Positions 1-57,386 of a stretch of 64,000 nt of DNA are shown piece by piece; position 1 is the first letter of the stretch; every line of letters begins with the position of its first letter. This DNA comes from Escherichia coli (GTDB taxonomy: Bacteria; Pseudomonadota; Gammaproteobacteria; Enterobacterales; Enterobacteriaceae): the NCBI RefSeq assembly GCF_045037415.1, contig NZ_CP173438.1. One strand, 5' to 3'. Under the pieces are notes generated by a model. That model had not been told where the DNA came from. It worked only from the letters and a program-made list of their open reading frames with translations, and ran no database searches. The position numbers and the translations under genes are program-made.

Positions 1-917
1 AACAGTTCAATCTGCCGATTGAGAAAACGGTTAAGACTCTGCTGGTTAAAGCCGTTGAAGGCAGTAGCTTCCCGCTGGTTGCGCTGCTGGTGCGCGGTGA
101 CCACGAGCTGAACGAAGTTAAAGCAGAAAAACTGCCGCAGGTTGCCAGCCCGCTGACTTTTGCGACCGAAGAAGAAATTCGTGCCGTGGTTAAAGCCGGT
201 CCGGGTTCACTGGGTCCGGTAAACATGCCGATTCCGGTGGTGATTGACCGTACCGTTGCGGCGATGAGTGATTTCGCTGCTGGTGCTAACATCGATGGTA
301 AACACTACTTCGGTATCAACTGGGATCGCGATGTCGCTACCCCGGAAATTGCTGATATCCGCAACGTGGTGGCTGGCGATCCAAGCCCGGATGGTCAGGG
401 TACGCTGCTGATCAAACGTGGTATCGAAGTCGGTCACATCTTCCAGCTGGGTACCAAGTACTCCGAAGCACTGAAAGCCTCCGTACAGGGTGAAGATGGC
501 CGTAACCAAATCCTGACGATGGGTTGCTACGGTATCGGCGTAACGCGTGTGGTAGCAGCGGCGATTGAGCAGAACTACGACGAACGCGGCATCGTATGGC
601 CTGACGCTATCGCGCCGTTCCAGGTGGCGATTCTGCCAATGAACATGCACAAATCCTTCCGCGTACAGGAACTTGCTGAGAAACTGTACAGCGAACTGCG
701 CGCACAAGGTATCGAAGTGCTGCTGGATGACCGCAAAGAGCGTCCGGGCGTGATGTTTGCTGATATGGAACTGATCGGTATTCCGCACACTATTGTGCTG
801 GGCGACCGTAACCTCGACAACGATGATATCGAATATAAATATCGTCGTAACGGCGAGAAACAGTTAATTAAGACTGGTGACATCGTCGATTATCTGGTGA
901 AACAGATTAAAGGCTGA
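1..917 (+). CDS. proS: prolyl-tRNA synthetase, C-terminal ~305 codons (5' end lies outside the window)
   Basis: Frame is open from position 3 to TGA at 915-917; translation matches class II ProS C-terminal/anticodon-binding region; followed by hairpin+T-run; synteny with yaeF-nlpE. Confidence 0.93.
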
Positions 918-1949: not shown

Positions 1950-2660
1950 TTACTGCCCCAAACTACTGCAATCCTGGTTCGGGTAAAATTTACCTGCCGT
2001 ATCGGGCGCTAATACTTTGGTCGGCGCACCGGTATCCGGATTAGCCTCAAGCGTAAAGTGACCTTCTACTGACAGTAACACCGGTTTTTCGCCGTTGCCG
2101 CGCGCAGCCAGGTAGCCACGCTCCAGCTCTGCGTTATTCGCCACCATAAAACGTTTTCCAGTCGCGCAATCAGTAAAGGTCGCCGCATCAGCCATATAGA
2201 AATACATGCCACGCAGGGTCATCGGCGTCATTGGCATGCTCGATTTTGCCGGTTCCAGCGTGTAGTTGAACTGCGATTCAATGGGATTACCTTCACGATC
2301 GAGCATCTCCAGTGCATCCCCTTTCGCTCGATAATATGACTTTTCACCTTTGCTGTCGGTTAATACCAGCTTGTCGGCAGTTCGCGCCCATGTACCGTAG
2401 GAAGCGAAAGAGGAAGGCTCTTCACGTGCCCCCAGATAACGTTCATTCATCACCCAGGTTCCATCTTTTTCGAGGAACAGAGAGGTTTCGATTCCTTCGC
2501 AATCAGCACACGGCAGCACGCCGCGCCAACTTTGCGGCATCGGTTTCAGTTCGGCAGCCTGCGCCGGGGAAAGCGTATCGACTTCGGCCCGATTATTACA
2601 TCCCATCAGAGTAAAAAGGCTGATTACAGCCATCGCTGTCACTATCGCTTTTTTCACCAT
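1950..2660 (-). CDS. nlpE: outer-membrane lipoprotein NlpE (Cpx-pathway surface-sensing lipoprotein)
   Basis: 236-aa ORF, lipoprotein signal ...FTLMGC, CxxC motifs; synteny. Confidence 0.9.
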   Translation of the reverse strand: MVKKAIVTAMAVISLFTLMGCNNRAEVDTLSPAQAAELKPMPQSWRGVLPCADCEGIETSLFLEKDGTWVMNERYLGAREEPSSFASYGTWARTADKLVLTDSKGEKSYYRAKGDALEMLDREGNPIESQFNYTLEPAKSSMPMTPMTLRGMYFYMADAATFTDCATGKRFMVANNAELERGYLAARGNGEKPVLLSVEGHFTLEANPDTGAPTKVLAPDTAGKFYPNQDCSSLGQ

Positions 2661-40380: not shown

Positions 40381-41820
<1,440 letters not shown>

Positions 41821-43341: not shown

Positions 43342-45324
43342 TTAACGGCTCTGCTTTCTCAACAAATAGATAAAATATGGCGCGCCGATAAAGGTCGACA
43401 GCAGCCCCGCTGGGATCTGGAATGGAAACAATACCATCCGCCCACACCAGTCAGCGAACACCAGCAGTAATCCTCCCACCAGCGCCGAAATTACGATGTG
43501 TGGCATCGTCCGTCGAAAGCCCATCATCCGCGCAATATGCGGTGCCATTAAACCAACAAAACTCAACGGACCAATGGTCATTGTCGCGGTCGCCGTCAGG
43601 CAAGCCGCTAACAGCAGCAGCGCAATTCGCGTCGGCGTCAGCGCCATCCCCACGGCTCGTGCGGTATCACCACCCAGCGGTAAAATGGTCAGCCAGCGGC
43701 GGCACAGCGGGGTAATCGCCAGCAAAATCACCATCACAATTCCAGTACGCCAGACCTGCGCATCGGTCGCGTTGTAGGTCGAACCGGAAATCCAGGTCAG
43801 AACTTGCGCCATTCGCGGGTCACCACTTGCCTGCAACATCATCAAAAGCATGGTGAACGCGGTACTTAACGCCATCCCCGCCAGTAACATGCGGTGTGGG
43901 GAAAATCCACCGCGTCCGGCGGCGATCATAATGATCAACAGCGTCACCGCCGCCCCGAGACTGCCTGTGGGTAACAGCCAGCCAAAGGCATTACCCGGCA
44001 CCAGAAACAGCATTAACACCACGCCAAACGCCGCGCCGGAGCTAATCCCCAGCACTTCCGGGCTTGCCATCGGGTTTCCGGTCAGCCGCTGAATAATACA
44101 GCCCGCCACCGCCAGCATGACACCCGCAAACAGCGCCGCCATAATTCGCGGCCAGCGCCAGGGCATCAAATCCTCGAGCAACGCCCCGCTCGCCCACGTC
44201 CAGCCGTGCGCATCACGACCAAACGACAGCGCCACCACCACAGCCATCAACAGCAGCACGCCGCCCGCGAGAGCAAACGCCAGCACGTGTTGGCGTTCAG
44301 TCGCGACACGATCGTTGACCTTCATATCCGGCGCGCTAATGCTGCGTAAACGCGGCAGCAGCCACAGTAGCAGCGGCGCACCGATCAACGCAGTGACCGA
44401 ACCGGTAGACACTTCCATCCACACGCGAGTCAGCCAGAGGATGATTTGATCAGAAAGCCACAGAATTAACGCACCAATCAGCGATGCCAGCATCAACCGT
44501 GGCAACAAACGCCGCGCCCCCAGCATTTTCGCCAGCAGTGGCGCGAACAAACCGATAAAGCCGATAATCCCCACCGCGTTCACCAGCAGCGCACTGATGA
44601 CAATCGCCAGCGACAACGCCGCCAGACGAGCGAGCGACAAGGCCAGCCCGAGATTGCGCGCCACGCCATCATCAAGCCCCATCAGAGTTAACGGGCGAAG
44701 TAGCAATAACGTCAGCATCACGCCGCCCAGCAGCTGCGGCCATAAACGCTCAACGCCGCCCCAGTCGGTTTGCGTCAGCGTTCCGGTGCTCCACAGGAAC
44801 ATGCTTTGCAGTTGGTCATGATGGAAGATAACCAGTAACTGATTGATTGCGCCGCAATAAAGGCTCACTACCAGCCCCGCGAGGATCAGCGTTACCGGCG
44901 AAAGCCGTTTCCCCCACGCGACGCCAAAGACGATTAAGCCAACAACACAAGCCCCTGCCAGCGCAGCAAACTGGCTCGCCATCGCGCCGGGGATCGCCCA
45001 GAGCGTGGTGACGGTAATCCCCAGTTGCGCGCCTGTTGCAACACCCAACGTCGTCGGTTCCGCCAGCGGGTTACGCAGCACTTGCTGAAACAGCACGCCC
45101 ACCATCCCCAGGCCCGCGCCCACCAGCAGCGAAATCGCCAGACGCGGCAACAAGCTGTAGTGAAAAATCATCTGCTCGATGACGTCAATATCCGGCGACC
45201 AGGCGGCCTGCGCCCACTGGCTGCGCGGCAGCGCCTGCGAGAAGTTCATCCAGGTCAACGCCGCAGCAGCAACCACCAGCAGCGCCAGCAATAACACCGG
45301 AAAAAGCGCAATTCGTTTACTCAC
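43342..45324 (-). CDS. fhuB: ferric hydroxamate ABC transporter permease
   Basis: 660-aa duplicated FecCD-type permease. Confidence 0.93.
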   Translation of the reverse strand: MSKRIALFPVLLLALLVVAAAALTWMNFSQALPRSQWAQAAWSPDIDVIEQMIFHYSLLPRLAISLLVGAGLGMVGVLFQQVLRNPLAEPTTLGVATGAQLGITVTTLWAIPGAMASQFAALAGACVVGLIVFGVAWGKRLSPVTLILAGLVVSLYCGAINQLLVIFHHDQLQSMFLWSTGTLTQTDWGGVERLWPQLLGGVMLTLLLLRPLTLMGLDDGVARNLGLALSLARLAALSLAIVISALLVNAVGIIGFIGLFAPLLAKMLGARRLLPRLMLASLIGALILWLSDQIILWLTRVWMEVSTGSVTALIGAPLLLWLLPRLRSISAPDMKVNDRVATERQHVLAFALAGGVLLLMAVVVALSFGRDAHGWTWASGALLEDLMPWRWPRIMAALFAGVMLAVAGCIIQRLTGNPMASPEVLGISSGAAFGVVLMLFLVPGNAFGWLLPTGSLGAAVTLLIIMIAAGRGGFSPHRMLLAGMALSTAFTMLLMMLQASGDPRMAQVLTWISGSTYNATDAQVWRTGIVMVILLAITPLCRRWLTILPLGGDTARAVGMALTPTRIALLLLAACLTATATMTIGPLSFVGLMAPHIARMMGFRRTMPHIVISALVGGLLLVFADWCGRMVLFPFQIPAGLLSTFIGAPYFIYLLRKQSR

Positions 45325-46211
45325 GCTTTACCTCCGATGGCGTTATCCAGAATACGCACAAAGTGCATTGCAGAAAGCGTCGCACCATAGAACCAAACTG
45401 CAGGTACGCGCTGAAAGCGTCCGGCGCGGACAAACGGCATGGCCTGCCACAGCGGGGTTGCCATTAGCGCATCCATGTCTTTGCTGTTGTCGTGATCAAA
45501 ACAGAGCACATCAACGTCTTTATACGCTGCCAGACGATCGATACTGACGGCGGTACTGCCCCAGAAGTTGGTTTCCCCTTGCCAGGCATTTGGGATGCCG
45601 TACTCATCGAGAATTTCCTGGAACAAGCTGTTTGGACCGAAGACCAACATATGGCGCGGATCGATAAGCGTCGTCAGCAATAACGGGCGTGCACCACGCT
45701 TCACAAAGCGGGGTTTCATGCTGCGGATAAAGTCTTCATAGTGCGCTAAATGCGTTTCCGCTGCGCTTTGCAGGTTAAGTAAATCTGCCATTTCCGTCAG
45801 TGATTTACGCGCCATCGCCAGTGGCTGTTTGCCGTCGCTGAAGTTAAATCCGCGCCCCGGCGCAATACGTGCCAGCATTTCTGGTGAAGGGCCATATCCT
45901 GCAGACCAGACCATAAACGACGGTTTCATTTCGGTCAGCAGTTCAAGGTTGGGTTCTGTACGCAAACCAACGTCAATCACTGAGTCCGGCAATGGCGGTT
46001 CGCTGACCCACAGGCGATAGTTGATGGTGTCCGCCACGCCGTAAGGCACGATGCCGAGCGCCAGCAGTAACTCCACCGGCAACCACTCCAGTGCCACAAT
46101 ACGATTGGGATCAATAACCGCCGCGTGGGCGGTATTCATCTGCCATAACAACGGAGAAAGCGCCATCGCCGTTAACAGTCGGCGGCGCGAAATAAGAGGT
46201 AAGCCGCTCAT
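45321..46211 (-). CDS. fhuD: ferric hydroxamate periplasmic binding protein
   Basis: ORF track 45321..46214 begins at TTG; ATG at 46211 gives MSGLPLISRRRLLTAMALSPLLW..., 296 aa, Tat-like RRR signal. Confidence 0.9.
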   Translation of the reverse strand: MSGLPLISRRRLLTAMALSPLLWQMNTAHAAVIDPNRIVALEWLPVELLLALGIVPYGVADTINYRLWVSEPPLPDSVIDVGLRTEPNLELLTEMKPSFMVWSAGYGPSPEMLARIAPGRGFNFSDGKQPLAMARKSLTEMADLLNLQSAAETHLAHYEDFIRSMKPRFVKRGARPLLLTTLIDPRHMLVFGPNSLFQEILDEYGIPNAWQGETNFWGSTAVSIDRLAAYKDVDVLCFDHDNSKDMDALMATPLWQAMPFVRAGRFQRVPAVWFYGATLSAMHFVRILDNAIGGKA

Positions 46212-47008
46212 CAATAAACAAAACTCACAGGTGCAGCACCCGCCGGATGCGGCAGAATACCCATCGGGATGCCATAAATCATTTCGAGGGTTTCGCCGCG
46301 CATAATTTCCGCAGGCGTTCCCTGAGCAATCATTTCACCGCCGCGTAGGGCGACCAGATAATCACAGTAGCGCGCCGCCATATTGATATCGTGCAGCACG
46401 GCAATGACCGTCAGGCCACGCTCCTGACTTAAACGATGCACCAGCGCCAGTACATCAACCTGGTGGGCGATATCCAGCGCCGAAGTCGGTTCGTCGAGCA
46501 ACAGACAGCGGCTATCCTGCGCCACCAGCATGGCGATCCACGCCCGCTGACGTTCGCCGCCAGAAAGGCTATCGACCAGCCGATGCGCCAGCGGTTTTAA
46601 GCCAACCAGCGAGATAGCTTCCTCGACCTTTTCGCGATCTGCAACACCAAAGCGCCCCAGCGCGCCATGCCACGGGTAACGACCAATCGCCACCAGTTCA
46701 CGCACGGTCATCCCTTCTGCCGGAGGAAGCTGCTGCGGCAAATAAGCCACTTTGCGGGCAAACGCTTTGCTGCTCCAGCTTTCCAGCGGTTGGGCATCAA
46801 TAAGAATCTCCCCTTCCGACGGTGGCTGGTGACGACCAAGCATTTTGAGCAGAGTGGATTTACCAGAACCGTTGTGACCAATCAGACCGGTCACTTTCCC
46901 GGCAGGAAAGGTTAACGACAGCGGATGCAAAAGCGTGCGCCCGGGCACACGAAAGGAGATATTACGCAGTGCAAAAGTGGTATCGGAATGATTCGTGTAT
47001 TCCTGCAT
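46211..47008 (-). CDS. fhuC: ferric hydroxamate ABC transporter ATP-binding protein
   Basis: ORF track 46211..47050; ATG at 47008 gives MQEYTNHSDTTFALRNISF..., 265 aa, Walker A GHNGSGKST. Confidence 0.93.
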   Translation of the reverse strand: MQEYTNHSDTTFALRNISFRVPGRTLLHPLSLTFPAGKVTGLIGHNGSGKSTLLKMLGRHQPPSEGEILIDAQPLESWSSKAFARKVAYLPQQLPPAEGMTVRELVAIGRYPWHGALGRFGVADREKVEEAISLVGLKPLAHRLVDSLSGGERQRAWIAMLVAQDSRCLLLDEPTSALDIAHQVDVLALVHRLSQERGLTVIAVLHDINMAARYCDYLVALRGGEMIAQGTPAEIMRGETLEMIYGIPMGILPHPAGAAPVSFVY

Positions 47009-47059
47009 AACAGCCAACTTGTGAAACGGGCACGGAAATCCGTGCCCCAAAAAGAGAAA

Positions 47060-49309
47060 TTAGAAACGGAAGGTTGCGGTTGCAACGACCTGACGTTCTG
47101 CGCCCCAGAAGCAACCATAAGTGTTAAAGCAGCTGGCGACGTATTCACGATCGAACAGGTTGTTGACATGCAGCGCCACGTTGGAGCCCGCCATGCCGAC
47201 TCGCGCCAGATCATAACGCACTAACGCATCCACGACCGTATAACTTCCCACTTTAAAGGAGTTAGCCGGATCACCATAGCTGGAGCCAGTATAACGACCA
47301 CCGGTGCCCAGCGTCAGACCTGAAAGCGGACCGTCAAAGAAGGTATAGTCAGCCCACAGCGAAGCCATGTGTTTTGGCACCTGTGCAGGCGTATTTCCTT
47401 TGTAGTTGGTGTCAGTGGTGTATTCCGCGTCAGTATAGGTGTAAGAACCAACCAAGTTAACACTCGCCGACAGTGCCGCTTTCGCTTCCAGCTCTACGCC
47501 ACGCGCACGAATCTCACCGCCTTCAACCGAGAACAGTGAACCGTTCGGATCCGCCATCAGGTTATTAGTTTTGGTAAGCTGATACAGTGCGCCAGTCACC
47601 ACAATTGGGCGATCTTCTGGCACATATTTCACGCCGACTTCATACTGTTTGCCTTTCGAAGGTGCAAACAGATCGCCGTTCGCATCAGTCTGTGAAGCGG
47701 GTTCAAATGATTCACTGTAGCTGAAGTAAGGCGTTACGCCGTTGTCGAACAGGTAGTTTACACCACCACGCCAGGTGAACTCTTTGTCGTCACGTTCAGA
47801 TTTATTACCGTAATCACGGTTGAAAGATGACTGATCGGCCCAGTCATAGCGACCGCCAAGCGTAACCAGCACTTTATCCCACTGCGCCTGATCCTGAACA
47901 TACAGGCCGGTTTGTTTCTGTTTCAGCAGAACGCGGTATGGACCAGACGGATTCGGGTGAGCGCCAAAATCAAAGTCACTACGGTCTAAATTATAGATAT
48001 CAGATGGTGCAACTGAACCGGCATAACCAAACCAGGAATCGATGTCATTACGCATACGCATAAAGTCAACGCCAGTCAGCAGAGTGTGATCCACTGAACC
48101 GGTTGCGAATTTGCTTTGCAACTGAGTATCAACAGAGAAGTTTTCTAACTTCTCATTATCGATAACGTACTGACGAGTCAGTGTATGGCCCCATTGAGAC
48201 TGCGGCACGTTAGCACATGGACTCGAAGAGGGGTTTGAAGAATAGAGCGGGTCTGAGCACATGCCGTAGCCATATACGCTCTTTTGCGAGACTTTATTTT
48301 GTGCAAAGCGCAGGTTCTGACGCACAGTAAAGGTGTCGTTAAATTCGTGGTCGAAGCTATAACCAATCATCTTCTCGTTACGAGAATAGGTGTTGTTCTT
48401 CGCGCCTTCGTTAAAGTCGGTCGGCAGACGCTTACCGTTTGGCAGCGGTTCGACAGTCCCCTCTTTCGGCAACCAGCCGTAATAACCGGTTTCCGGCTCG
48501 TTCTGGAAGTAAGAAAGGAAAGTGAAATTGGTTTTATCATTCGGACGCCAGGTAAACGCTGGAGCAATAGCATAACGCTGCTCTTCAGCCCCCTTCTGCT
48601 GGGCATTCGCAGAACGCGCAAGGCCGGTCAGGCGATAAGAGTAAACGCCGTCATCATCCAGCGCATCGCTGAAGTCAAAACCAGTCTGGAATAGGCTGTC
48701 AGTCCCGGCCTTAAACTGAACTTCTTTCAACGGTTCAGTGGTCGGGCGCTTGCTGACCATGTTCAACAGGCCGCCTGGGCTGCTTTTCCCATACAGCACG
48801 GAAACCGGGCCACGCATGATTTCAGCGCGCTCCAGCATATATGGGTCAATAACCGCATCGTTATAGAAGTTGCCCTGCATCTTCAGGCCATTCAGATAGT
48901 TGTTCTGGCTTTGGCCGTCTGCCGCAAATCCGCGGATGATCAGGTAATCATAAGTATTAGATGCGCCACGGGTTCCCACAGCAACGCCAGGGGTATAGCT
49001 AAGCGCTTCTTTCACCGACTTAGGCTGATGCAGTGCCATCTCTTCAGCGGTGACGACAGAAATAGATTGAGGTACTTTTTGAATCGGCGTATCAGTTTTA
49101 GTGCCGGTAGCGGACTGTCGCGCCGCAATAGTTGCAGCTGGCCCCCATGCGCTTTCTTGCGGCGCAGGTGCAGCGGTAACGGTGATAGTGTCTTCTTTCG
49201 GTTCAACCGCTGCCTGTGCATAAACAGACATGCCGCTAACCGCTGTGGCTACTACAACTGCGATTTTACGCAGTGAGTGTTTTGGCTGAGCAGTTTTGGA
49301 ACGCGCCAT
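47060..49309 (-). CDS. fhuA: TonB-dependent ferrichrome outer-membrane receptor FhuA (receptor for phages T1/T5/phi80, colicin M, albomycin); loop variant differing from K-12
   Basis: 749-aa ORF; signal peptide, TonB box DTITVTA, C-terminal ...ATATFRF; several internal segments differ from the K-12 sequence as I recall it. Confidence 0.95.
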   Translation of the reverse strand: MARSKTAQPKHSLRKIAVVVATAVSGMSVYAQAAVEPKEDTITVTAAPAPQESAWGPAATIAARQSATGTKTDTPIQKVPQSISVVTAEEMALHQPKSVKEALSYTPGVAVGTRGASNTYDYLIIRGFAADGQSQNNYLNGLKMQGNFYNDAVIDPYMLERAEIMRGPVSVLYGKSSPGGLLNMVSKRPTTEPLKEVQFKAGTDSLFQTGFDFSDALDDDGVYSYRLTGLARSANAQQKGAEEQRYAIAPAFTWRPNDKTNFTFLSYFQNEPETGYYGWLPKEGTVEPLPNGKRLPTDFNEGAKNNTYSRNEKMIGYSFDHEFNDTFTVRQNLRFAQNKVSQKSVYGYGMCSDPLYSSNPSSSPCANVPQSQWGHTLTRQYVIDNEKLENFSVDTQLQSKFATGSVDHTLLTGVDFMRMRNDIDSWFGYAGSVAPSDIYNLDRSDFDFGAHPNPSGPYRVLLKQKQTGLYVQDQAQWDKVLVTLGGRYDWADQSSFNRDYGNKSERDDKEFTWRGGVNYLFDNGVTPYFSYSESFEPASQTDANGDLFAPSKGKQYEVGVKYVPEDRPIVVTGALYQLTKTNNLMADPNGSLFSVEGGEIRARGVELEAKAALSASVNLVGSYTYTDAEYTTDTNYKGNTPAQVPKHMASLWADYTFFDGPLSGLTLGTGGRYTGSSYGDPANSFKVGSYTVVDALVRYDLARVGMAGSNVALHVNNLFDREYVASCFNTYGCFWGAERQVVATATFRF

Positions 49310-49330
49310 TGGTATATCTCTGATGAAAGT

Positions 49331-49364
49331 GAATGATAACGTAAACGAGAATGATTATTATAAA
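49331..49364 (-). promoter_or_regulatory. Fur-box-like AT-rich dyad in the fhuA promoter region
   Basis: gaatgataacgtaaacgagaatgattattataaa contains GATAAT/ATCATT hexamers 20-55 nt upstream of the fhuA ATG. Confidence 0.55.
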
Positions 49365-49528
49365 GATGCGATAATATTCGAAACGCTGGCGGGTTCGCAA
49401 GTGATATACGCTCTGTGCGTCCATGAAGGGGCGAGAATCAATCAGATGAATCAAAAATGTTAATCTTTGCACCGTAAACCATAAAAATTCCATTACCAAA
49501 AATTAACATTTATGGCAAAGGGAAAAGC

Positions 49529-50539
49529 TTATCGGTAATACACTTCGAAGGTGGCAACAGAATTAACCCGACCACTTTTGACGCTACCCATTTTGATGTA
49601 GCGTGCTTTTAACGGAATAGTAACATTTTGATTTAACGTCGTTTTTTGAACAGGTGTATAGTCTGTATCAAATACCATCACATTGTTATTACTATCGAGG
49701 ATCTGCAGACCAACTCCTTCCGCCATTCCTGAACCAGACTCAATATTAAGAATATTATTACCCGTTACTCCAGTAGAACCTGATGAAGTAAAGCGGTAAT
49801 CAACTTTTACATCCTGAGAACATTTTTCAATCTGAATTTTAAACCGATCATCGGAAACTACAGGTGACACATTGTTAACATCAAAATCATCTGTGCCAAT
49901 ATCATTGAGTGGAACGGTAATATTTTTTTCTATAAGGTCGCATGTGCCCGGTTGAATATTGACCGGAACAGAACTAAAACGAAGCTCTCCAATAACACGA
50001 TTGTCATACTTCCAGTCAGCAACCAGTTTGCTGGTATCAATGGTCCCATTACCGACAGGTCCTGTGACAATAAACTGAATAGCTGCATGTATTGTAATCG
50101 GATAACCATATCCTTTAATCACTGTTGACGAGCCTTTATGCCAGGGCGTCATTAAATATCCGGCGGTGAGTTGCGCACTGGTGTTATTCGCCCACGCCGC
50201 GCGAAAACCGATTCCTGGCACATTAGTCTGAAACACATTGTTAAGTGGGTTATCAGTACGCATATCACCGTTTGTCAATACGGTATATCCTTGCCAGATC
50301 TCACCATTTGCCGTACAGGAAACTGAAATTGACGGACTGTTCGCATTTACTGTCGCAATAATCGTTCCAGGAACGGCATCGCTATTAACAACCAACGCAG
50401 GCACGGAGAATTGTACTGTTGCCGGATTTCCTCCATTTCCAGAAATGTTACAACCGGCGAAAACCTCAGGAATGACGCCCCAGCTAAGAAATATTATGGT
50501 CAATAATGTTCGTATATAAGAGACGAATCCTGGCTTCAT
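49529..50539 (-). CDS. fimbrial tip adhesin / minor subunit (two-domain, 336 aa) of a chaperone-usher pilus
   Basis: Signal peptide MKPGFVSYIRTLLTIIFLSWGVIPEVFA; C-terminal pilin-type ...SVATFEVYYR; last gene of operon after the usher; AT-rich. Confidence 0.8.
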   Translation of the reverse strand: MKPGFVSYIRTLLTIIFLSWGVIPEVFAGCNISGNGGNPATVQFSVPALVVNSDAVPGTIIATVNANSPSISVSCTANGEIWQGYTVLTNGDMRTDNPLNNVFQTNVPGIGFRAAWANNTSAQLTAGYLMTPWHKGSSTVIKGYGYPITIHAAIQFIVTGPVGNGTIDTSKLVADWKYDNRVIGELRFSSVPVNIQPGTCDLIEKNITVPLNDIGTDDFDVNNVSPVVSDDRFKIQIEKCSQDVKVDYRFTSSGSTGVTGNNILNIESGSGMAEGVGLQILDSNNNVMVFDTDYTPVQKTTLNQNVTIPLKARYIKMGSVKSGRVNSVATFEVYYR

Positions 50540-50560
50540 TATTTTTTCCTGTCTTATTTG

Positions 50561-53038
50561 TTATCGGCAATCCATTGTGGCTTTATAGATACCCGTGGTG
50601 TATTTTTCTGGCACTGTGACAACTCCTGTACATTGCTGGTTAATCTCTTTTCCCCACTGTACCGTAAATGTCATTGATTCTTGCACACCAGTAATATAAA
50701 CCTCCCCATCTTCACCAACAATCGCTGTACTATTCCCTAATGTCAGCAATGCCCCAAAGGGTACGCGTTCTTTATTATGGACTAATGTCAACAAGGCTCG
50801 TATTCCGCTACGTGCATCAAAATCGACACCAACAACAGCCCCTTTCGAAGGAATAACATCTTGTGTGGCATCAGAAATATCAAGACTATCGTGCCCCTGT
50901 GTATTCACAGTAATAGCGTTATGTCGATAATTCGTCATATTGGGAACAATCGCGTTTCCCCAATAATCAGTATAAACGCCTTGCGCATTTTGTACTTTTA
51001 CATTGGCACCCTCATTAATATGCACGATCGCGAATGAATCCTGCACTGATTGCCCCAATGTTACTCCATGAGCATGAGCAACCACCGCACCTTGCGCACT
51101 GTAATTCCACTGACGACTATTTTTATCATAGCTATATCCCAGACCGAATTCCCCCACTGAGCTACGATAACGTCCATTCATGCTGGCATCATAACCCACA
51201 TTATTATCAGTATAACTTTGCTGTAAATTATAACTCAGGTTGTTATCTTGCAGAGCAGTACCGCCAATTCCCAATTGATGTGATGTATTACTTTTATCGG
51301 AACGGTTTACGTTATACATCGCCCATGAATCTGGCAGCCAGCGAGAGAGAGGAATATTGAGTGTTAATGAAAATTGCTGCTCACCAGCCATTCCTGGCGT
51401 TTTCGTTAGTGTGTAATTAACAGACCAATTAATGTTACTCCAGGTCGTACTGTATCCCATTCCTATACTGCGTTCGGCCCCATGCATTCCCCAATAATCC
51501 TGTTGATAACCGTTAAGGTAGACCGAGCCCCAACGACCAATATTTTGTGAAAGATTAATTTGTAAACGATTACGCCGATTATTTGTCTGTCGATAACTGT
51601 AAATACCCTTGTCATCAGGTGTATCACGTTGATCAAGTGCTTCCTGGAAAGTGTAAAATTGTGATGTAGAATAACGATAACTTGCCAGAGTTACTGTCGT
51701 ATCAGTGTCTGGAAAATCTTTCGCATACTGTGCACGCCATGACAGTCCTGTAGCATCATCACGCCCATCATCAAACTTCGTTTCTGCTGCGGTGATATCA
51801 ACAGATACCGACCCCAGACGGCCTAAATCAGCGCCAATCCCTGTCACACCAGAATGATAAATTGAGGCACCAAGTATGCCGCCATAAATCGTTATTCCAT
51901 AGGGCAAGCCATATATCGCGGTTGCAACACCAAAAACAGGTGTCTCAGCATGATTATCGTTGTCACGGTATTTTCCAGTTGCAAGACTATATTTTAATGC
52001 GCCTTCTCGCTGTAGAATTGGAACCGTTGAACTGGCCTGAATAAAACTGTGTTCTTGCCCGTTGGTTTCTTTGATGGTGACTTCCAGATCGGCCCCCGCC
52101 GTTACCTGGCTTAAGTCTTTAATTTCAAATGGCCCTGCCGATACCCACGTTTGGTAAATAACATAGCCGTTTTGTTTAATCACAACTTGTGCATCGCTGT
52201 TGGCAATACCACGAACCACTGGCGCAAAGCCTTGTTCGCTGTCAGGCAGCATACTGGTGTCCGTTTCAAGCTTTATACCTGTCATCTGCACACTGTCAAA
52301 AAGATCGCCATTTGTGAACGTCTGCCCGACTTCCATCTGGCTTCTTAATGCTTTGATATCGCGTTGCAAACTGGTGCTGATCGACTCCCAACTGGAGTCA
52401 CTGTAAACGGTATTATTTCGTAGCCGCCATACGCCTAAATTAATCCCTGAATTTAAATTCAACCAATTTGAATTCAGGTTATCGCCATCACTGTTTTGCC
52501 GGGAACCACTGGCGTAATAACTTAACCAAACCGCACTCTCACCATCACTCCAGTATTTCGGTGAAATACTCCCTGCGGCCCGCGCATTCTGATAGATTTG
52601 CGGGATCCGCAGACACAGCGTTTGGCTGTCTAACTGGAAATCATAACGTGCGCCATCAATAATCTGAGCAATATCACCAAACTCAGTGTCATCATCCATT
52701 ACTTGTAACGCGGGAATGTCGTCAACTTTAAGACCGAACTCACGGAGATCCGCCTTTGTAAAACGAGGGATGAGCCTTTTTTTATCCGAAGACAGAATGA
52801 AGGTAATATTTCTCTTATCAAGATACTCTTGCCCCCACATAACAGAGGTAAGATATACTCCCGGAGTTAAGTTATTATTATTAACAAAATCCTCCAGCAC
52901 TTGTGTATTTTCAAGTGGGCTATCCAGCTCCAGGATACGAAGGTTAAATTCATCTCGTGCATAGCTCAATGAATACACTGCCGATAATGCAAATGTTATC
53001 CCAGTTAAGACAAATGTGCGATGCAATGGTAGCAGCAT
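50561..53038 (-). CDS. fimbrial outer-membrane usher (FimD/PapC family)
   Basis: 825-aa ORF with signal peptide and usher-like size and composition; lies between chaperone and adhesin genes. Confidence 0.9.
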   Translation of the reverse strand: MLLPLHRTFVLTGITFALSAVYSLSYARDEFNLRILELDSPLENTQVLEDFVNNNNLTPGVYLTSVMWGQEYLDKRNITFILSSDKKRLIPRFTKADLREFGLKVDDIPALQVMDDDTEFGDIAQIIDGARYDFQLDSQTLCLRIPQIYQNARAAGSISPKYWSDGESAVWLSYYASGSRQNSDGDNLNSNWLNLNSGINLGVWRLRNNTVYSDSSWESISTSLQRDIKALRSQMEVGQTFTNGDLFDSVQMTGIKLETDTSMLPDSEQGFAPVVRGIANSDAQVVIKQNGYVIYQTWVSAGPFEIKDLSQVTAGADLEVTIKETNGQEHSFIQASSTVPILQREGALKYSLATGKYRDNDNHAETPVFGVATAIYGLPYGITIYGGILGASIYHSGVTGIGADLGRLGSVSVDITAAETKFDDGRDDATGLSWRAQYAKDFPDTDTTVTLASYRYSTSQFYTFQEALDQRDTPDDKGIYSYRQTNNRRNRLQINLSQNIGRWGSVYLNGYQQDYWGMHGAERSIGMGYSTTWSNINWSVNYTLTKTPGMAGEQQFSLTLNIPLSRWLPDSWAMYNVNRSDKSNTSHQLGIGGTALQDNNLSYNLQQSYTDNNVGYDASMNGRYRSSVGEFGLGYSYDKNSRQWNYSAQGAVVAHAHGVTLGQSVQDSFAIVHINEGANVKVQNAQGVYTDYWGNAIVPNMTNYRHNAITVNTQGHDSLDISDATQDVIPSKGAVVGVDFDARSGIRALLTLVHNKERVPFGALLTLGNSTAIVGEDGEVYITGVQESMTFTVQWGKEINQQCTGVVTVPEKYTTGIYKATMDCR

Positions 53039-53104
53039 AAATTCCCTTGCGCCCGTAATATTATAAATACAGATCGGTTATTTATAGTAATACACTTCGG
53101 TGAT

Positions 53105-53821
53105 TTATAACTTTTGTTGTCGTTTCCCAGAACTTGAACCGTAGTCAGTTATCACCGACCATTCAACAATACTTCCCGCTCCGACAGGAAGACTAAACCG
53201 CTGCTCAGAAAATGGTCCTACCATCATCAATAATGCGCCAGGTTCAGATTTGCTCTCGGTGGGAACAATATTTTTTCCCGATACTGTCAGATCACTGAAT
53301 GAAATATAAAAAGGCGTTGGATTTTTTACTATGAGCTTCCCCGCTTCTTTATGGAACTTAAGTTTTTCCCATGCAGTGAGAGCATCACTATTATCCAAAG
53401 AAGCTGGCCGCCAAAATAATTTAAGCCGGGCTTTCATTGCAAATTGCAAGGTATTTCTATCTTTTAGTTCTTCTGGCATCGCAGAAACAGATTTTATGTT
53501 TGCCAGAAACAAACTTTCCCTATCCTGAGGAAGTTTGTTTTTATCACCTGTAAATACAATATGGAGTAATGTTTGCCGATTTTCTTCAAGTTTATAAACT
53601 GGAGGCGTAATGAGAAAGGGGGCTTTAGAGCCATCAATATTACTCACCCAGCTTTGCACCAAATAGCGTGCATATGCATCTTTATTTTTTAATGTGATTT
53701 GAACTTCATTTTGATTTGAAGGATAGATAATACGTGTACCGCCAAGAACAATACTTGCCTGAACTTGCAATGCCGTAAGAAGAAACGTAAAACCTAAACA
53801 AACTCGAGAAAAAACTGACAT
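53105..53821 (-). CDS. periplasmic fimbrial chaperone (PapD/FimC family)
   Basis: ORF track 53105..53854 begins at TTG; ATG at 53821 gives MSVFSRVCLGFTFLLTALQVQA signal peptide; ~238 aa. Confidence 0.85.
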   Translation of the reverse strand: MSVFSRVCLGFTFLLTALQVQASIVLGGTRIIYPSNQNEVQITLKNKDAYARYLVQSWVSNIDGSKAPFLITPPVYKLEENRQTLLHIVFTGDKNKLPQDRESLFLANIKSVSAMPEELKDRNTLQFAMKARLKLFWRPASLDNSDALTAWEKLKFHKEAGKLIVKNPTPFYISFSDLTVSGKNIVPTESKSEPGALLMMVGPFSEQRFSLPVGAGSIVEWSVITDYGSSSGKRQQKL

Positions 53822-53866
53822 AAATAACCCTCCGTGGTCAAACAGTCCTTTCAAACACTATGAATA

Positions 53867-54433
53867 TTAGCGATAAAATACTTCGAACGTCGCAGATGAG
53901 GCATACTTACCCGCAGTCGGCGCGTTATTACCAACCTGAATAACATTGGCGGTGTAATTGAATATTGTTGGAGTAATGCTCCCGGCATTATCAACATCAG
54001 TGGATGCATCGGGAACTGAACCATCAAATTTCACATCGTTAGCACCGCCATTTTTATTTGTCACCGTAATACCCACATTTGTTGCACTGCCAGCCCCAGC
54101 TTCGCTATTTTCCAGACGCAGGAAACCTGCATCCGTTGTCGTTCCAGAAAATGTCAGGTTTAGTTTGTCCACCAACGGATCGCATTTTATTAATTCAATT
54201 TTAAAATCTTTTGACGTTCCAATACTACCGTCTCCAGAATAGTCCGCTGGGTAAGTATCTGCAAAAGTGACTGTCCCTGTTGTACTGGCAGACTCGTTTA
54301 CATTAATTTCGCAAGTATCGGCAACAATTTTACCGTTAAAGTTAACCACTCCGGTATCTGTAGCAAATACACTGGTACTTACTACAGCGATGAGACTTCC
54401 TGACACTAACAGAGAAAGCAATTTTTTATTCAT
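53867..54433 (-). CDS. major fimbrial subunit (type-1-like pilin)
   Basis: 188 aa; signal peptide MNKKLLSLLVSGSLIAVVSTSVFA; Cys pair (ADTC...IKCD); C-terminal ...SSATFEVFYR; first gene of operon. Confidence 0.85.
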   Translation of the reverse strand: MNKKLLSLLVSGSLIAVVSTSVFATDTGVVNFNGKIVADTCEINVNESASTTGTVTFADTYPADYSGDGSIGTSKDFKIELIKCDPLVDKLNLTFSGTTTDAGFLRLENSEAGAGSATNVGITVTNKNGGANDVKFDGSVPDASTDVDNAGSITPTIFNYTANVIQVGNNAPTAGKYASSATFEVFYR

Positions 54434-54734
54434 AAAAATCCCTTAATTATGAGGTAATACACATGATTCCATTCCAGAGCGACTGGTCAGGGCTTGATAA
54501 ATATTGATATTAGAAATATATCCACCAAATAATATTATTTTTAGATTAGAACAAAAAACACATAGCCTGTCTATACAAACTGCAGTAATAAAACAATAAC
54601 CACATGAATTTTAAAGTGTTGTTTTTATTTTAAGAGTTTAAGGTAATAAAATATAACATAAACCCAAAATATATATTAATGGTCGTATATTCATTAAATA
54701 AATATTTATTTGGTTTATCTAAATGATTTCATTA
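54434..54734 (-). promoter_or_regulatory. AT-rich upstream region of the fimbrial operon (candidate promoter; possible nucleoid-protein silencing target)
   Basis: ~300 nt, visibly AT-rich, immediately 5' of the major pilin gene; no ORF. Confidence 0.4.
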
Positions 54735-54758
54735 CGCTCTCCGCATAAGCGGAGAGCG
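54735..54758 (-). terminator. terminator-like hairpin immediately after mrcB
   Basis: cgctctccgc ataa gcggagagcg perfect 10-bp stem 10 nt past the mrcB stop; downstream flank is A/T-rich but without a clean U-run. Confidence 0.55.
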
Positions 54759-54767
54759 ATTACGATA

Positions 54768-57293
54768 TTAATTACTACCAAACATCTCCTTGATCCAGCC
54801 AGCCACGCCGTCGCTGTCTTTTTGCTCCTGTTGAGCAGGTTGCTGTTGCTGCGGCTGAGAAGACTGATCAAACGGATTGCCTGACGGTTGCTGCTGCATC
54901 TCACTCTGCTGGCACAGCGATTGCGGATCGCTGGTCCAGACTGGCAAGACACGCATACCACCGCTGCAAACAAAGTTGCCGTCGTAGTCCACGCCCATAT
55001 CTGCAATATCTTCCGGCGGAACAAGATTCAGCGGTGTTGGCGTCTGGTTAGCCAGATAACGCTGATAAATCGACATTGCCCCGCTGGCACCATACAGTTT
55101 GGTCGGCTGGTTGTTATCACGGCCGACCCAGGTGATGGTCACCGTGCTCCCATCAATGCCCGCAAACCAGGTATCTACGTTATTGTTGGTAGTCCCTGTT
55201 TTCCCTGCCAGATGCAGGTTCGGGTATTTTGCCCCAAGCTGACGTCCCGTACCGCGTTGTACAACCTGCTGCATGGTCCATAGTGTCAGATACGCCGCCT
55301 GCGCCGGAACAGCGCGTTCTGCCTGCGGGAAGCTCTGATACAACACCTTGCCGTCTTCTGCGATGACTGAACGTAGCGCGGAAAGCGGAGCACGATTACC
55401 ACCGCTGGCGATAGTCTGGAAGGCCTGCGCCACTTCGATTGGCGTTAAGTTCAACGCCCCCAACAACATTGCTGGAACTGGATTCAGTTGATCTTTCGGC
55501 ACACCCAGTTTGATCCAGGTATCCGTAACCGCAGGCAGCCCCAACGCCATGCCCAGATTCACCGTTGGCACGTTCATCGAACGGGTCAACGCATCTACCA
55601 GCATCACCCTGCCACTTTCGCTATAACGACGATCATCGTTCTGCGGTGACCAGACCTGGCCATTCGGCTGACGCAGCGCGATTGGCGCATCGGCAATCCA
55701 CGTATTCAAACGATAGATTTTCGGCTGGCTTAAGGCCGTTAGATAAGTCGCTGGTTTTGCAAGGGAACCAATCGAACGACGCGCCTGCATCGCACGGTTG
55801 TAGCCCGCAAACTGCGGCTCAGAGCCACCGACCATCGCACGAACTTCACCGCTAAAGCGGTCAACAACCACAATCGCGGTTTCAAGATCGCTCAACTTAC
55901 GCTGTTTCTTCAGTGCCGGAATGCCTTCCACGGCGGCTTTTTCTGCCGCGTCCTGGGCCACCGAGTCAAAGGTAGTGAAGATCTTCACGCCGGAGAGATC
56001 TTTTACCTTATCGCCTAATTTCGCCTGCAGCTCCTGACGCACCAGCTGCATAAAGGCTGGCTGAGGAGAGATCACCCCACCGCGCGGCTGAACACCCAGC
56101 GGACGTGCACTCAACATGTCATAGAGTTCTTGATCAATAATTTGTTGCTGTTGCAGCAAACGTAGTACCAGGTTACGTCGCTCCAGCGCCAGTTTCGGGT
56201 TACGCCACGGGTTGTAGATGGACGCCCCTTTCACCATACCCACCAACAGCGCCTGCTGATCGAGGCTCAATTCTTCTACCGGGCGACCAAAGTAATACAA
56301 GCTCGCCAGCGGGAAGCCGCGGATTTCGTTGTCGCCGCTCTGACCGAGATACACCTCGTTCATATACAGCTCAAGAATACGGTCTTTGCTGTAACGCGCG
56401 TCCATGATCAGCGCCATGTAGGCTTCGTTCGCTTTACGCCAGTAAGAACGCTCGCTGGAGAGAAACAGGTTTTTAACCAACTGTTGCGTCAGCGTACTCG
56501 CCCCCTGCACCGTGCGTCCGGCAGTCAGGTTTGCCAGCACCGCACGTCCGATTGAGTAGAGACTGATCCCATCATGCTCGTAGAAATGACGGTCTTCTGT
56601 CGCCAGCAAAGTATCCACCAGCAAATCCGGGAAACCACTGCGCGGCACAAACAGACGCTGCTCACCGTTTGGCGAAGAGATCATGGTGATCAGGCGCGGA
56701 TCAAGACGGAAGAAACCGAACTGACGGTTGTTCTCCATATTGACTATCGTCGCCAGATGATCGCCATCAAAGGTCAGACGCGCGCGCACCTGCCCTTCTT
56801 TGCTGTCCGGGAAATCAAACGGACGGCGGATCATCTCAATGCTGTTGGCCTGTACGGTAAACTCACCAGGACGGGTCATTTTCGACACCTGGCGATACTG
56901 GGTCGCCTCCAGCAGCTTCACCATCTCGTTCTTGCTGATGGTCATGTCTGGCTCAAGGTTGACCATTCGACCATAAACTGCCGCGGGCAATTGCCAGACC
57001 TTGCCATCAATACGGCTGCGAATTTTTTGATCGAGATAAACGCCGTAAATGGCGATCAGCACGGCAAAAACGATAGCCAGTTTTAGCAGCAGCCATAGCC
57101 AGCCGCGTTTGCCACGAGGCTTACGCCCTTTGCCTTTGCCCTTACCTTTGCGCGGCATCGGTTCTTCATCCTCATAGTCATCATAATCGTCGTAATCATC
57201 GTCATCTTCGTAACGACGACGGCTTACCTTTTGTTTGACCGGACGCGTCGGTTTCCCTTTGCGTCCAATTGGCTCGCGGTCATTCCCGGCCAT
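54768..57293 (-). CDS. mrcB: penicillin-binding protein 1B (bifunctional glycosyltransferase/transpeptidase)
   Basis: ORF track 54768..57308; ATG at 57293 gives [22 protein letters not shown]...; 841 aa here versus 844 recalled for K-12 (shorter C-terminal Q/P repeat). Confidence 0.95.
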
Positions 57294-57386
57294 GCTTTTT
57301 CTCCGCAATATTCAGGCGCAAAAGCCCGATTTTCTGTTCTTCTGTTGCAAGACAGAAGAAGATATCTCTCAAATTTGCTTTGGTCT

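Follow-up and report, generated by a model that had tools for sequence, protein, structure and literature searches.

A chaperone-usher fimbrial operon ends 219 nt upstream of fhuA in the 64,000-nucleotide stretch of ST131-type Escherichia coli DNA analysed here (the window), and its last gene is followed by an A/U-rich stem-loop that runs into a short U-run. We give about an even chance to the reading that this junction is an ordinary operon boundary, in which the operon's own 3′ stem-loop is joined to the ancestral fhuA control region and transcription terminates partially at the stem-loop and then through Rho. From the folding, conservation and base composition of the gap, we infer a role for the stem-loop in 3′-end formation, the involvement of Rho and a small leak-through into fhuA. 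Read-through from the fimbrial operon into fhuA is possible, although no feature of the junction singles it out for this. The first-pass annotation had proposed that fimbrial transcription could run on into fhuA and partly escape control by Fur, an inference that the present evidence neither demonstrates nor favours.

Layout of the junction and identity of the operon

The adhesin gene and fhuA both lie on the minus strand, and the ORF coordinates confirm the distance between them given earlier (49310-49528, 219 nt; Table 1). The set of subunit, chaperone, usher and adhesin domains is complete, with all Pfam matches above cut-off except for the MrkD-like receptor-binding domain of the adhesin, which falls just under it (25.9 bits, cut-off 27). 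The Fimbrial domain of the adhesin (PF00419) covers residues 196-335, and the protein is annotated as 'fimbrial protein' WP_001295784.1 in both SK1144 and EC958. The GC content of the operon is 38-48%, with 28% in its promoter region and 52-57% in the flanks. A 77-aa ORF that crosses the spacer (49266-49499, minus strand) was rejected as a gene, as its upstream half lies in sequence absent from operon-less strains and its downstream end runs into fhuA in a different reading frame.

Table 1. Coordinates of genes, structures and control elements around the fimbrial operon-fhuA junction (positions in the window).
Feature	Position	Strand	Details and basis
fhuC, fhuD, fhuB, after fhuA	43342-47008		ORF list and SK1144 annotation
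fhuA (ferrichrome and phage receptor, 749 aa)	47060..49309	-	ATG 49309-49307; ORF list and RefSeq annotation of collinear SK1144
fhuA core promoter and operators	49330..49400	-	-10 TATAAT 49362-49357; inferred start site near 49350
Proximal HypT site TTACGTTATCATTCA	49344-49330	-	exact match
Fur-box region	about 49365-49335	-	overlies -10 and start site
Alternative -35/-10 pair	TTGCGA 49400-49395, TATTAT 49376-49371	-	promoter-like match
U-run UUUUUGAUUCAUC	49445..49457	-	U5 at 49457-49453; base of 3′ arm and tail of stem-loop
Putative distal HypT operator homologue AACAUUUUUGAUUCA	49447..49461	-	overlaps 3′ arm and U-run of stem-loop
A/U-rich stem-loop, candidate weak terminator or 3′-protective structure	49452..49514	-	MFE -17 kcal/mol
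Alternative 5′ hairpin CCUUUGCCAUAAAUGUUAAUUUUUGGUAAUGG, then AAUUUUUAUG	49490..49521	-	dG -9.6 kcal/mol; U5 at 49487-49483
Adhesin (336 aa, two-domain tip adhesin, last gene of fimbrial operon)	49529..50539	-	stop TAA 49531-49529; ORF list
Usher, fimbrial operon	50561-53038	-	Pfam Usher/PapC_N/PapC_C
Chaperone, fimbrial operon	53105-53854 as ORF; 53105-53821 in SK1144 (later start)	-	Pfam PapD_N/PapD_C
Major subunit, fimbrial operon	53867-54433	-	Pfam Fimbrial
G+C-rich hairpin CGCUCUCCGCuuauGCGGAGAGCG	54735..54758	-	just past mrcB stop (54770-54768), without U-run; upstream fimbrial-island boundary

The operon is of the catalogued ECSF_0165 chaperone-usher type (gamma* clade), a sporadic and uncharacterised type (Wurpel et al., 2013, PMC3559732). 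In EC958 the usher stands 13 genes beyond that of Yad, in agreement with the locus numbers EC958_0295 and EC958_0282, respectively, in Table S2 of that study. Usher, adhesin and chaperone share their RefSeq protein accessions between EC958 and SK1144, the record matching the window, while the major subunit differs (WP_001035607.1 in EC958, WP_001035606.1 in SK1144). The operon is also present in SE15 and E2348/69, where the locus (E2348C_0155) has the same layout. Phylogroup D was rejected as the carrier lineage, given that EC958 (ST131, group B2) has the operon and enteroaggregative strain EAEC 042 does not. The accessible portions of the text and supplements of PMC3559732 mention neither fhuA nor mrcB and describe no 3′ end.

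Search for a terminator

A consensus terminator scan of the minus strand of the gap returned no match. That scan also misses the Salmonella terminator after the orthologous adhesin gene, and for this reason a calibrated hairpin-plus-U-tail score, d, was written, with d > 0 as the terminator threshold. The best candidate in 49310-49528 has d = -20.0 and lies below threshold, while elsewhere in the window the score picks out 12 terminators (+3.6 to +39.1), mostly at gene ends. The initial reading had been that no stable hairpin with a U-run could be identified between the two genes. This stands for a canonical terminator, which is absent in both scans, and has to be amended for the A/U-rich hairpin with a U-run at 49514-49452. 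Folding of the gap as minus-strand RNA divides in the same way, with no strong terminator structure but with a stem-loop of -17 kcal/mol that runs into UUUUUGAUU. A missing canonical terminator is the usual state among the gaps of this window, where 10 of the 15 co-directional gaps of at least 90 nt have none. At the upstream boundary of the fimbrial island, the hairpin CGCUCUCCGCuuauGCGGAGAGCG after mrcB (dG -20.4 kcal/mol, d = -12, z = -6.0) is unlike the K-12 hairpin ACCGGAUGGCgaguUGCCAUCCGGU.

An Rfam search of 46500-55500 at E <= 1 found nothing in the spacer, and its sole match, a viral frameshift element at 53502-53520, was dismissed as a chance match. The K-12 Term-seq table (Adams et al., supplement) lists no 3′ end between mrcB and fhuA and one upstream of mrcB only. 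A literature search on mrcB with Rho found nothing, and a paper on a 'fhuA promoter' expression vector was set aside as irrelevant since it concerns Vibrio cholerae fhuA.

The stem-loop downstream of the adhesin gene

The outer stem consists of 13 pairs formed by CAUAAAUGUUAAU (49514-49502) with AUUAACAUUUUUG (49464-49452), with an inner extension (UUUUG/CAAAG) leading to a 27-nt apical region that contains a 5-bp mini-hairpin. Only 2-3 of the 15-17 pairs are G-C, and the structure departs from a canonical stem, which is G+C-rich, about 5-14 bp long and closed by a loop of 3-8 nt. With so few G-C pairs and so large an apical region, the stem-loop is weak and open and would be inefficient as an intrinsic terminator. 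Its 3′ arm runs into UUUUUGAUU, where the tail score of 4.14 compares with 4.0-5.5 for true terminators in the window; the same Us are paired with the A-rich base of the 5′ arm. Conservation of the U-run is not strict, for the L004 allele has an interrupted version (UUUAUGAUU).

The stem-loop of this window does not exceed shuffled sequence in stability. For the 90 nt that follow the adhesin stop, z is -1.32 and 24 of 200 shuffles do equally well; once the choice of the best sub-window is corrected for, -17 kcal/mol is attained by 32 of 200 shuffles. A second, 5′ hairpin (49521-49490) is mutually exclusive with the stem-loop, both being A/U-rich and non-canonical, and it is the one picked by the global 231-nt MFE fold. 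On reading the aligned sequences by eye, its G-C pairs are lost in the other alleles.

Conservation of the stem-loop

The 13-pair outer stem is present in four diverged Escherichia-type alleles with 94% of cells paired, the other alleles that carry it having adhesin identities of 94%, 90% and 82%. Two compensatory A-U to G-C pairs occur in the outer stem, both within one allele, that of E2348/69, at pairs 49513/49453 and 49503/49463, and the loops have diverged freely between alleles while the stem stays paired. Slid registers of the outer stem gave nothing comparable. With four distinct sequences only, the covariation score of the outer stem is reached by 32 of 500 shuffles. The stronger versions of the stem-loop in L016/E2348-69 (-22.4 kcal/mol, z = -3.1) and L004 (-21.6 kcal/mol, z = -4.8) are clearly non-random.

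The gene order mrcB, four fimbrial genes, fhuA is also seen in Salmonella, Citrobacter, Kluyvera and further relatives, where about 207-220 nt separate the operon from fhuA; the genome-collection scan with the adhesin gave one locus, and the wider relatives come from a protein search and contig look-ups. The place of the ECSF_0165 operon between mrcB and fhuA is an old one, conserved across several enterobacterial genera. Most orthologous copies have a stem-loop of their own after the adhesin gene, where the hairpins are unrelated between genera. Seven of the 12 folded adhesin-downstream regions have z <= -2.9 (L016, L004, L008, L011, L015, L012 and L018, of which L012 is an Enterobacter copy that does not adjoin fhuA), and the L011 hairpin has d = -1.1. 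Three orthologues (L005, L013, L014) fold with no significant structure relative to shuffles. The compensatory changes, together with the positionally matched stem-loops of the orthologues, suggest selection for a 3′-end element at this position after the adhesin gene.

The same data have to be set against a simpler account, in which the hairpin is an incidental inverted repeat in A/T-rich DNA and transcripts end diffusely, via Rho or decay, in the spacer or early fhuA. The thermodynamic non-significance of the hairpin in this window is consistent with such a repeat, as are the three orthologues without significant structure and the lack of canonical terminators in most gaps of the window anyway. 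So is a scan of metagenomes with the hairpin-arm pattern, which returned 102 stretches: 12 were homologous, all of three allele types already known, and some 90 unrelated sequences matched the pattern by chance. An incidental repeat would not, however, be expected to show two compensatory pairs and 94% pairing around freely diverged loops, nor to fold far better than its own shuffles in the sister alleles, nor to be replaced in other genera by unrelated hairpins at the same position, and we regard this account as unlikely. The repeat was also considered as the end of a mobile element or as a dispersed repeat, and this was rejected because each genome has only one copy of the sequence.

The fhuA control region

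Homology with operon-less strains begins at about 49469-49450, so the 5′ arm of the stem-loop is specific to operon-carrying sequence. Operon-less E. coli lack roughly the first 60-80 nt past the adhesin stop (from 49528 to around 49450). The other ~140 nt, which K-12 shares, make up the ancestral fhuA control region and include the leader of ~41 nt. From about -60 to the ATG, the window is identical to K-12 bar two substitutions (-35 to -10) and one nucleotide missing from the leader. The start site was placed from the HypT site coordinates +7 to +21 (PMC6397515), and a Fur box lies in the fhuA promoter (PMC6397515). The Fur-box-like dyad noted earlier upstream of fhuA is borne out, in that it overlies the -10 and start site, matches GATAATGATAATCATTATC at 14 of 19 positions (49365-49347) and is near-identical to the K-12 promoter. 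This match ties the best score in the window, where six sites on the minus strand reach 14/19, and five further GATAAT/ATTATC-like hexamers lie near the 19-mer. We take the Fur-box region, on these alignments, to be the normal fhuA promoter.

The distal HypT footprint of Salmonella is AACCCTTCCTTTTCA at -111 to -97 (PMC6397515). The distal operator was tested as AACCCTTYCTTTTCA at -111 to -97, where the window has AACATTTTTGATTCA and the position is conserved. In the Escherichia alleles, the operon's 3′ stem-loop appears to overlap and alter this distal HypT operator homologue of fhuA.

This overlap allows an account at the level of DNA, in which the inverted repeat is a remodelled distal HypT operator, another site, bound by protein or forming a cruciform, through which the fhuA promoter is modulated, or a recombination scar of the joining of operon and fhuA. 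The 3′ arm does overlap the distal HypT footprint position (-111 to -97), and the homology boundary with operon-less strains falls inside or just past that arm. Set against this, a spacing of 37 nt between the arms is atypical for a dyad operator, and the putative site matches at only 10 of 15 positions in K-12 (AACCCTTTCTTTTCA) and 9 of 15 in the Salmonella footprint. In addition, A-U to G-U as well as A-U to G-C changes are tolerated, and an RNA stem is favoured since G-U pairs form only in RNA. A DNA-level role for the repeat seems to us quite unlikely.

Transcription across the boundary

In the ordinary operon boundary that we prefer, the stem-loop at 49514-49452 would most likely stop only a fraction of polymerases. 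Polymerases that pass it would cross ~150 nt of untranslated RNA with C exceeding G, where Rho probably terminates them, and proteins on the fhuA promoter, Fur in particular, may block those that remain. Transcripts ended by Rho would then be shortened as far as the stem-loop, and this would protect their 3′ ends. The combination of a partial stop at the stem-loop, Rho and promoter-bound proteins would therefore keep transcription of the fimbrial operon apart from that of fhuACDB, as two units between which there is little leak-through, if any.

The room for Rho-dependent termination comes from the ~200 nt of untranslated RNA between the adhesin stop and the fhuA ATG, in which C exceeds G from roughly +100 on. 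Directly after the E. coli hairpin C/G is only 1.0-1.5, and it rises to 2.1-2.3 from about +120 (99th percentile of the window, 2.16), so that the signal is weak directly after the hairpin and its strong part overlies the fhuA promoter and leader. Directly past the hairpins of the Salmonella, Citrobacter and Kluyvera orthologues, C/G is 3-10.5.

Several observations count against an ordinary boundary, namely the z of -1.32, covariation drawn from four alleles, the broken U-run of L004, the three structureless orthologues, the low C/G directly after the hairpin and the K-12 Term-seq table with its lack of an entry from mrcB to fhuA. A further one is that read-through RNA would have an intact fhuA leader and start codon, which means that translation of fhuA on that RNA could shield it against Rho.

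The intact leader and start codon equally lend themselves to the opposite proposal, that there is effectively no termination and that fimbrial transcription yields Fur- and iron-independent fhuACDB mRNA, with changes in ferrichrome uptake and in FhuA-dependent phage and colicin sensitivity. Two scans without a canonical terminator and a weak stem-loop, indistinguishable from shuffles in this window, are in keeping with it. We nevertheless consider it improbable, in view of the conservation of the stem-loop with compensatory changes, of the orthologue stem-loops that lie mostly at the same position (that of Salmonella scoring as a terminator), and of the ~200 nt of untranslated RNA, richer in C than in G, ahead of the fhuA ATG. 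Two points of general background also count against unimpeded read-through: Fur bound over the -10/+1 region can block oncoming polymerase, and H-NS usually silences cryptic fimbrial operons that are rich in A+T. The same geometry exists in K-12 under the constitutively expressed mrcB, yet fhuA is accepted as Fur-regulated.

A further idea is that the stem-loop is deliberately leaky or conditional, where induction of the operon drives Fur-independent fhuACDB expression in ST131 and related strains, and the long-kept adjacency of operon and fhuA in Escherichia, Salmonella, Citrobacter and Kluyvera is due to this coupling and not to mere historical linkage. We think this very unlikely indeed. 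If it were true, adhesion would be tied to ferrichrome uptake and also to how sensitive the cells are to colicin M, microcin J25 and phages that depend on FhuA. Were read-through substantial, the pandemic ST131 lineage would gain an iron-independent route to FhuA expression, with a possible bearing on phage therapy because several phages and bacteriocins enter through FhuA, itself a siderophore receptor. The evidence points instead to a normal operon boundary, the significance of which is small.

Comparison with known systems

Dar and Sorek (2018, PMC6061677) associate Rho-dependent termination with stem-loops that have no canonical U-tract. The junction resembles those ends in that a non-canonical stem-loop stands a short way past the stop codon, with untranslated RNA richer in C than in G downstream. 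The stem-loops of PMC6061677 are energetically stable, have no U-rich sequence after them and carry rut sites immediately downstream, whereas at this junction the stem-loop is marginal, a U-run follows it and the excess of C over G becomes strong only ~60 nt further on. By analogy, the C/G pattern may be said to fit the arrangement of a rut site after a stem-loop described there.

The Salmonella enterica junction (L008/L009) has the same order, a fimbrial operon followed by fhuA, with a gap of 210 nt and a stem-loop that begins ~10 nt past the adhesin stop. Upstream of the operon, the Salmonella loci have an IS4-like fragment, and the compared stretch is without mrcB. The Salmonella hairpin (AAAAAAAGCCUG-ucuccc-UGCAGGCUUUUCUUUUC) has the layout of an intrinsic terminator, with d = +4.7, just over threshold, compared with -20 in E. 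coli, and downstream of it the sequence is strongly rich in C and poor in G, with C/G as high as 4.

In the mrcB-fhuA junction of K-12, the co-directional mrcB stops at exactly the distance from the fhuA ATG, 219 nt, at which the adhesin gene stops here. Both junctions have a stem-loop shortly after the stop and no canonical terminator (d = -26.6 in K-12), and in both the proximal ~140 nt hold the promoter, the Fur box and the HypT-site positions. The K-12 hairpin (ACCGGAUGGC/GCCAUCCGGU, -17 kcal/mol) is G+C-rich and without a U-run, while the one here is A/U-rich and has a U5. The distal HypT-site sequence here is altered at 5 of 15 positions relative to K-12. The upstream unit is the housekeeping gene mrcB in K-12 and an A+T-rich four-gene fimbrial operon here. 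Since K-12 has the same geometry with mrcB in the place of the operon, the arrangement would be ancestral and ordinary.

Layout of the fimbrial operon and the fhuA junction

The fimbrial operon contains a complete chaperone-usher gene set, with a two-domain adhesin (Pfam) in last position, and ends upstream of fhuA on the same strand. The junction coordinates of the first-pass annotation, from the adhesin stop codon to the fhuA start codon, were correct, leaving a spacer of 219 nt (49310-49528) with 36.5% G+C.

Features of the fimbrial locus and the adhesin-fhuA junction
Feature	Coordinates	Strand	Remarks
mrcB	54768-57308	-	stop at 54770-54768
Fimbrial major subunit	53867-54433	-	
Chaperone	53105-53854	-	
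Usher	50561-53038	-	
Adhesin	49529-50539	-	336 aa; stop TAA at 49531-49529
Competing smaller hairpin	49521-49490	-	-9.6 kcal/mol, then AAUUUUUAUG
Stem-loop	49514-49452	-	begins fourteen nt past adhesin stop; MFE -17 kcal/mol
Distal HypT-site homologue	49461-49447	-	AACAUUUUUGAUUCA (= AACATTTTTGATTCA); 10/15 positions as in K-12
fhuA -10 TATAAT	49362-49357	-	
Inferred fhuA transcription start	near 49350	-	from HypT coordinates
Proximal HypT site	49344-49330	-	exact match to Salmonella footprint
fhuA	47060-49309	-	ATG at 49309-49307
fhuC, fhuD, fhuB	43342-47008	-	

Terminator search in the spacer

A consensus terminator scan of the minus strand of the spacer returned none, a negative that is weak by itself because the same scan passes over the Salmonella orthologue's terminator-like hairpin, which lies just over the score threshold. 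Every hairpin and tail was also scored (d) by our own script with a d'Aubenton-Carafa/Lesnik-type function, whose thresholds are approximate since it runs on current ViennaRNA energies. Twelve matches in the 64-kb window scored above zero (+3.6 to +39.1), eight of them at same-strand gene ends (proS, map, dksA, accA, ispC, frr, tsf, and rpsB) and two being the map and frr terminators read from the opposite strand. The remaining two are weak and intragenic, in clcA (41214-41273, minus strand, d = +7.0) and just within the 5′ end of nlpE (2618-2631, minus strand, d = +3.6); they probably represent either false positives or attenuator-like sites internal to these genes. Within the spacer, the top candidate reached only d = -20.0, and this score detects no canonical intrinsic terminator there. 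The earlier statement that no obvious terminator precedes fhuA thus holds for the canonical type, but it overlooked a stem-loop with a U-run at 49514-49452. Antisense to the first fhuA codons (49257-49284, plus strand) lies a terminator-like hairpin with a T-run, ACTGCGATTTTACGCAGT GAGTGTTTTG, shared with E2348/69; a single such site is about what chance gives (1.0 expected in the scanned region).

We took a census of co-directional gaps of at least 90 nt, with genes placed as RefSeq maps them in the collinear record SK1144. A terminator with a score above zero occurs in only 5 of the 15 such gaps of the window, and those without one include pyrH-frr, degP-cdaR, dgt-degP, dapD-yaeH, sfsA-dksA, hrpB-mrcB, and the gap between mrcB and the fimbrial operon. 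Most of the window's co-directional gaps of this size have no obvious terminator. Substantial read-through of fimbrial transcription into fhuA, the reading that follows the first-pass annotation, gained no positive support from the analysis, and we regard it as unlikely.

A stem-loop retained among Escherichia-type alleles

The outer stem pairs CAUAAAUGUUAAU with AUUAACAUUUUUG and is extended inward by UUUUG with CAAAG, enclosing an apical region of 27 nt that includes a 5-bp mini-hairpin, and the 3′ arm continues into UUUUUGAUU. Its stability in the window is marginal. The 67-nt stem-loop segment by itself, chosen after the fold was seen, gives z = -3.9; the first 90 nt past the stop give a far smaller departure (table below), and 32 of 200 whole-spacer shuffles, each with its own best 67-nt window, equal the stem-loop.

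Comparing the window with three further Escherichia-type junction alleles is more telling for conservation of the stem than window-only folding statistics, and is suggestive but not strong, given a sample of just four sequences in which a single lineage holds both compensatory changes. The 13-pair outer stem is retained in all four alleles, with a freely diverged interior. Aligning the four sequences gives 94% paired cells and nine invariant pairs; one stem pair shows a one-sided change (A-U to G-U) and two show two-sided changes (A-U to G-C), both within the E2348/69 allele. Sliding the register by 1-3 columns leaves 35-53% pairing and a compensatory change at one pair, at +2; the observed covariation score was reached by 32 of 500 column shuffles. 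A metagenome scan yielded no allele types beyond those known. That the hairpin has no function and termination is diffuse would suit the marginal stability in the window, less so the retained outer stem, and we think this improbable.

Folding of the first 90 nt after the adhesin stop (129 nt for L018) in Escherichia-type alleles and orthologous loci
Locus	Adhesin identity to window	Stem-loop	MFE (kcal/mol)	d	z
Window	100%		-17.0		-1.32
L016 (E2348/69 type)	94%		-22.4		-3.1
L004	90%		-21.6		-4.8
L007/L017	82%		-14.0		-1.5
L008 (Salmonella)		AAAAAAAGCCUG...CAGGCUUUUCUUUUC		+4.7	-3.6
L011		GGCCUG...CAGGCC plus UUUCUUAC		-1.1	-3.8
L015 (Citrobacter)		perfect 17-bp palindrome, no U-run		-14.5	-8.8
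L018		G+C-rich 10-bp stem		not scored	-3.3
L013 (Kluyvera)		weak		-43.7	-1.5
L005		none significant		-30.9 (best, elsewhere in gap)	+0.96
L014 (Citrobacter)		none significant		-35.5	+0.74

Identity and age of the operon

The junction sequence recurs with 100% identity in many complete E. coli genomes. A 501-nt query spanning it is matched over at least 80% of its length by 571 of 5,426 genomes; in the others the match begins only at about 49469 or 49450, on the fhuA side. EC958 (O25b:H4-ST131) carries the same locus, with the usher, chaperone, adhesin, and FhuA accessions of SK1144, the record to which the window corresponds, and a different RefSeq accession for the major subunit. Its usher lies 13 genes past the Yad usher, in agreement with EC958_0295 versus EC958_0282 (Wurpel et al., 2013, Table S2; PMC3559732), and this spacing identifies the window's operon as the "ECSF_0165" type of the gamma* clade, recorded in EC958, SE15, and E2348/69 and called sporadic, possibly an ancient remnant (PMC3559732). 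E2348/69 has a diverged operon allele. Its chaperone gene is annotated as frameshifted (L125 8926-9643); in one lineage at least, therefore, the operon is in decay. Across 49200-49469, the promoter-proximal spacer and first 110 nt of fhuA, the window has only 91-93% identity to most E. coli genomes. So low a value for core sequence suggests that fhuA is present here as a divergent allele linked to the operon.

Past mrcB, K-12, which lacks the operon, has a hairpin ACCGGAUGGC-gagu-UGCCAUCCGGU with no U-run (d = -26.6, z = -2.9), and its mrcB-fhuA gap is likewise exactly 219 nt. Operon carriers differ in having a strong hairpin at 54735-54758 (minus strand), CGCUCUCCGC-uuau-GCGGAGAGCG (-20.4 kcal/mol, no U-run); carrier-specific sequence therefore begins immediately past the mrcB stop, replacing the K-12 hairpin. 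In the mrcB-subunit spacer, AAAAAC is single at 54626/54627 in the window versus two tandem copies in SK1144, a 6-bp slipped-strand-type indel in a 28% G+C region upstream of the major subunit gene (gap of 334 nt in the window, 340 nt in SK1144 and EC958).

Protein searches and contig look-ups place the operon directly upstream of fhuA in Salmonella enterica (L008/L009; adhesin identity 56%), Citrobacter (L014, L015), Kluyvera ascorbata (L013), and L005/L006, L010, and L011. mrcB precedes it wherever the fetched sequence extends that far (L005, L007), the adhesin-fhuA gap is 207-220 nt across relatives, and the Enterobacter copy (L012) is the only one not at fhuA. The adjacency is therefore old, and the operon has probably been lost in most E. 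coli, which fits the "ancient remnant" suggestion (PMC3559732). Most orthologous loci have their own, unrelated stem-loop soon after the adhesin stop.

Among fhuA-adjacent loci the lowest adhesin identity is 48-56%, and L011 has two tandem adhesin genes. Between mrcB and the major subunit, L005/L006 (adhesin identity 74%) has a called gene of 146 aa on the opposite strand (399-839, minus strand), with no Pfam match and no counterpart in the window. Common to the non-Escherichia loci (L005 6139-6158, L008, L013, L015) is a second small hairpin, CCCCUNA...UAGGGG, which sits immediately ahead of the -35 region of fhuA, roughly -75 to -55 relative to the fhuA start site, and is followed by U-rich sequence; it is missing from K-12 and the window.

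fhuA promoter and the distal HypT position

HypT footprints obtained with DNase on the fhuA promoter of Salmonella, TTACGTTATCATTCA at +7 to +21 and AACCCTTCCTTTTCA at -111 to -97 (PMC6397515), served to place the promoter elements in the window. The Fur-box-like dyad proposed earlier was borne out, with 14/19 matches at 49365-49347 over -10/+1 and further GATAAT-like hexamers. At the distal HypT position K-12 has AACCCTTTCTTTTCA, while in the window it is occupied by the 3′ arm and U-run of the fimbrial stem-loop, and the altered sequence is common to all four Escherichia-type operon alleles. In operon carriers, both the looping mediated by HypT and the HOCl repression of fhuA might be weaker. 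A DNA-level role for the inverted repeat, which this overlap would suit, we hold to be very unlikely.

Discussion

The most likely account, which we favor with about even confidence, is that the adhesin-fhuA junction is an ordinary operon boundary. The weak stem-loop and U-run would end part of transcription or shield the 3′ end, what remains would be handled by Rho and by proteins at the fhuA promoter, and fhuACDB would continue to be driven from its own promoter, under Fur and HypT control. Past the adhesin stop about 200 nt of RNA are untranslated. Over 78-nt windows, C/G is 0.5-0.6 at the spacer start, 1.0-1.5 past hairpin 49514-49452, and 2.1-2.3 from about +120 into the first fhuA codons (whole-window 99th percentile, 2.16), and it is 3-10.5 directly after the hairpins of the Salmonella, Citrobacter, and Kluyvera loci.

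The operon is already catalogued, the promoter and operators of fhuA are known, and it is commonplace for a co-directional upstream gene to have no canonical terminator. As far as our literature search showed, the conserved stem-loop is undescribed, yet elements of its kind are ordinary. Dar and Sorek (PMC6061677) reported that Rho-dependent transcripts end just past stable stem-loops that lack U-tracts and have rut sites directly downstream; the loci of the other genera fit this pattern well, the window only loosely.
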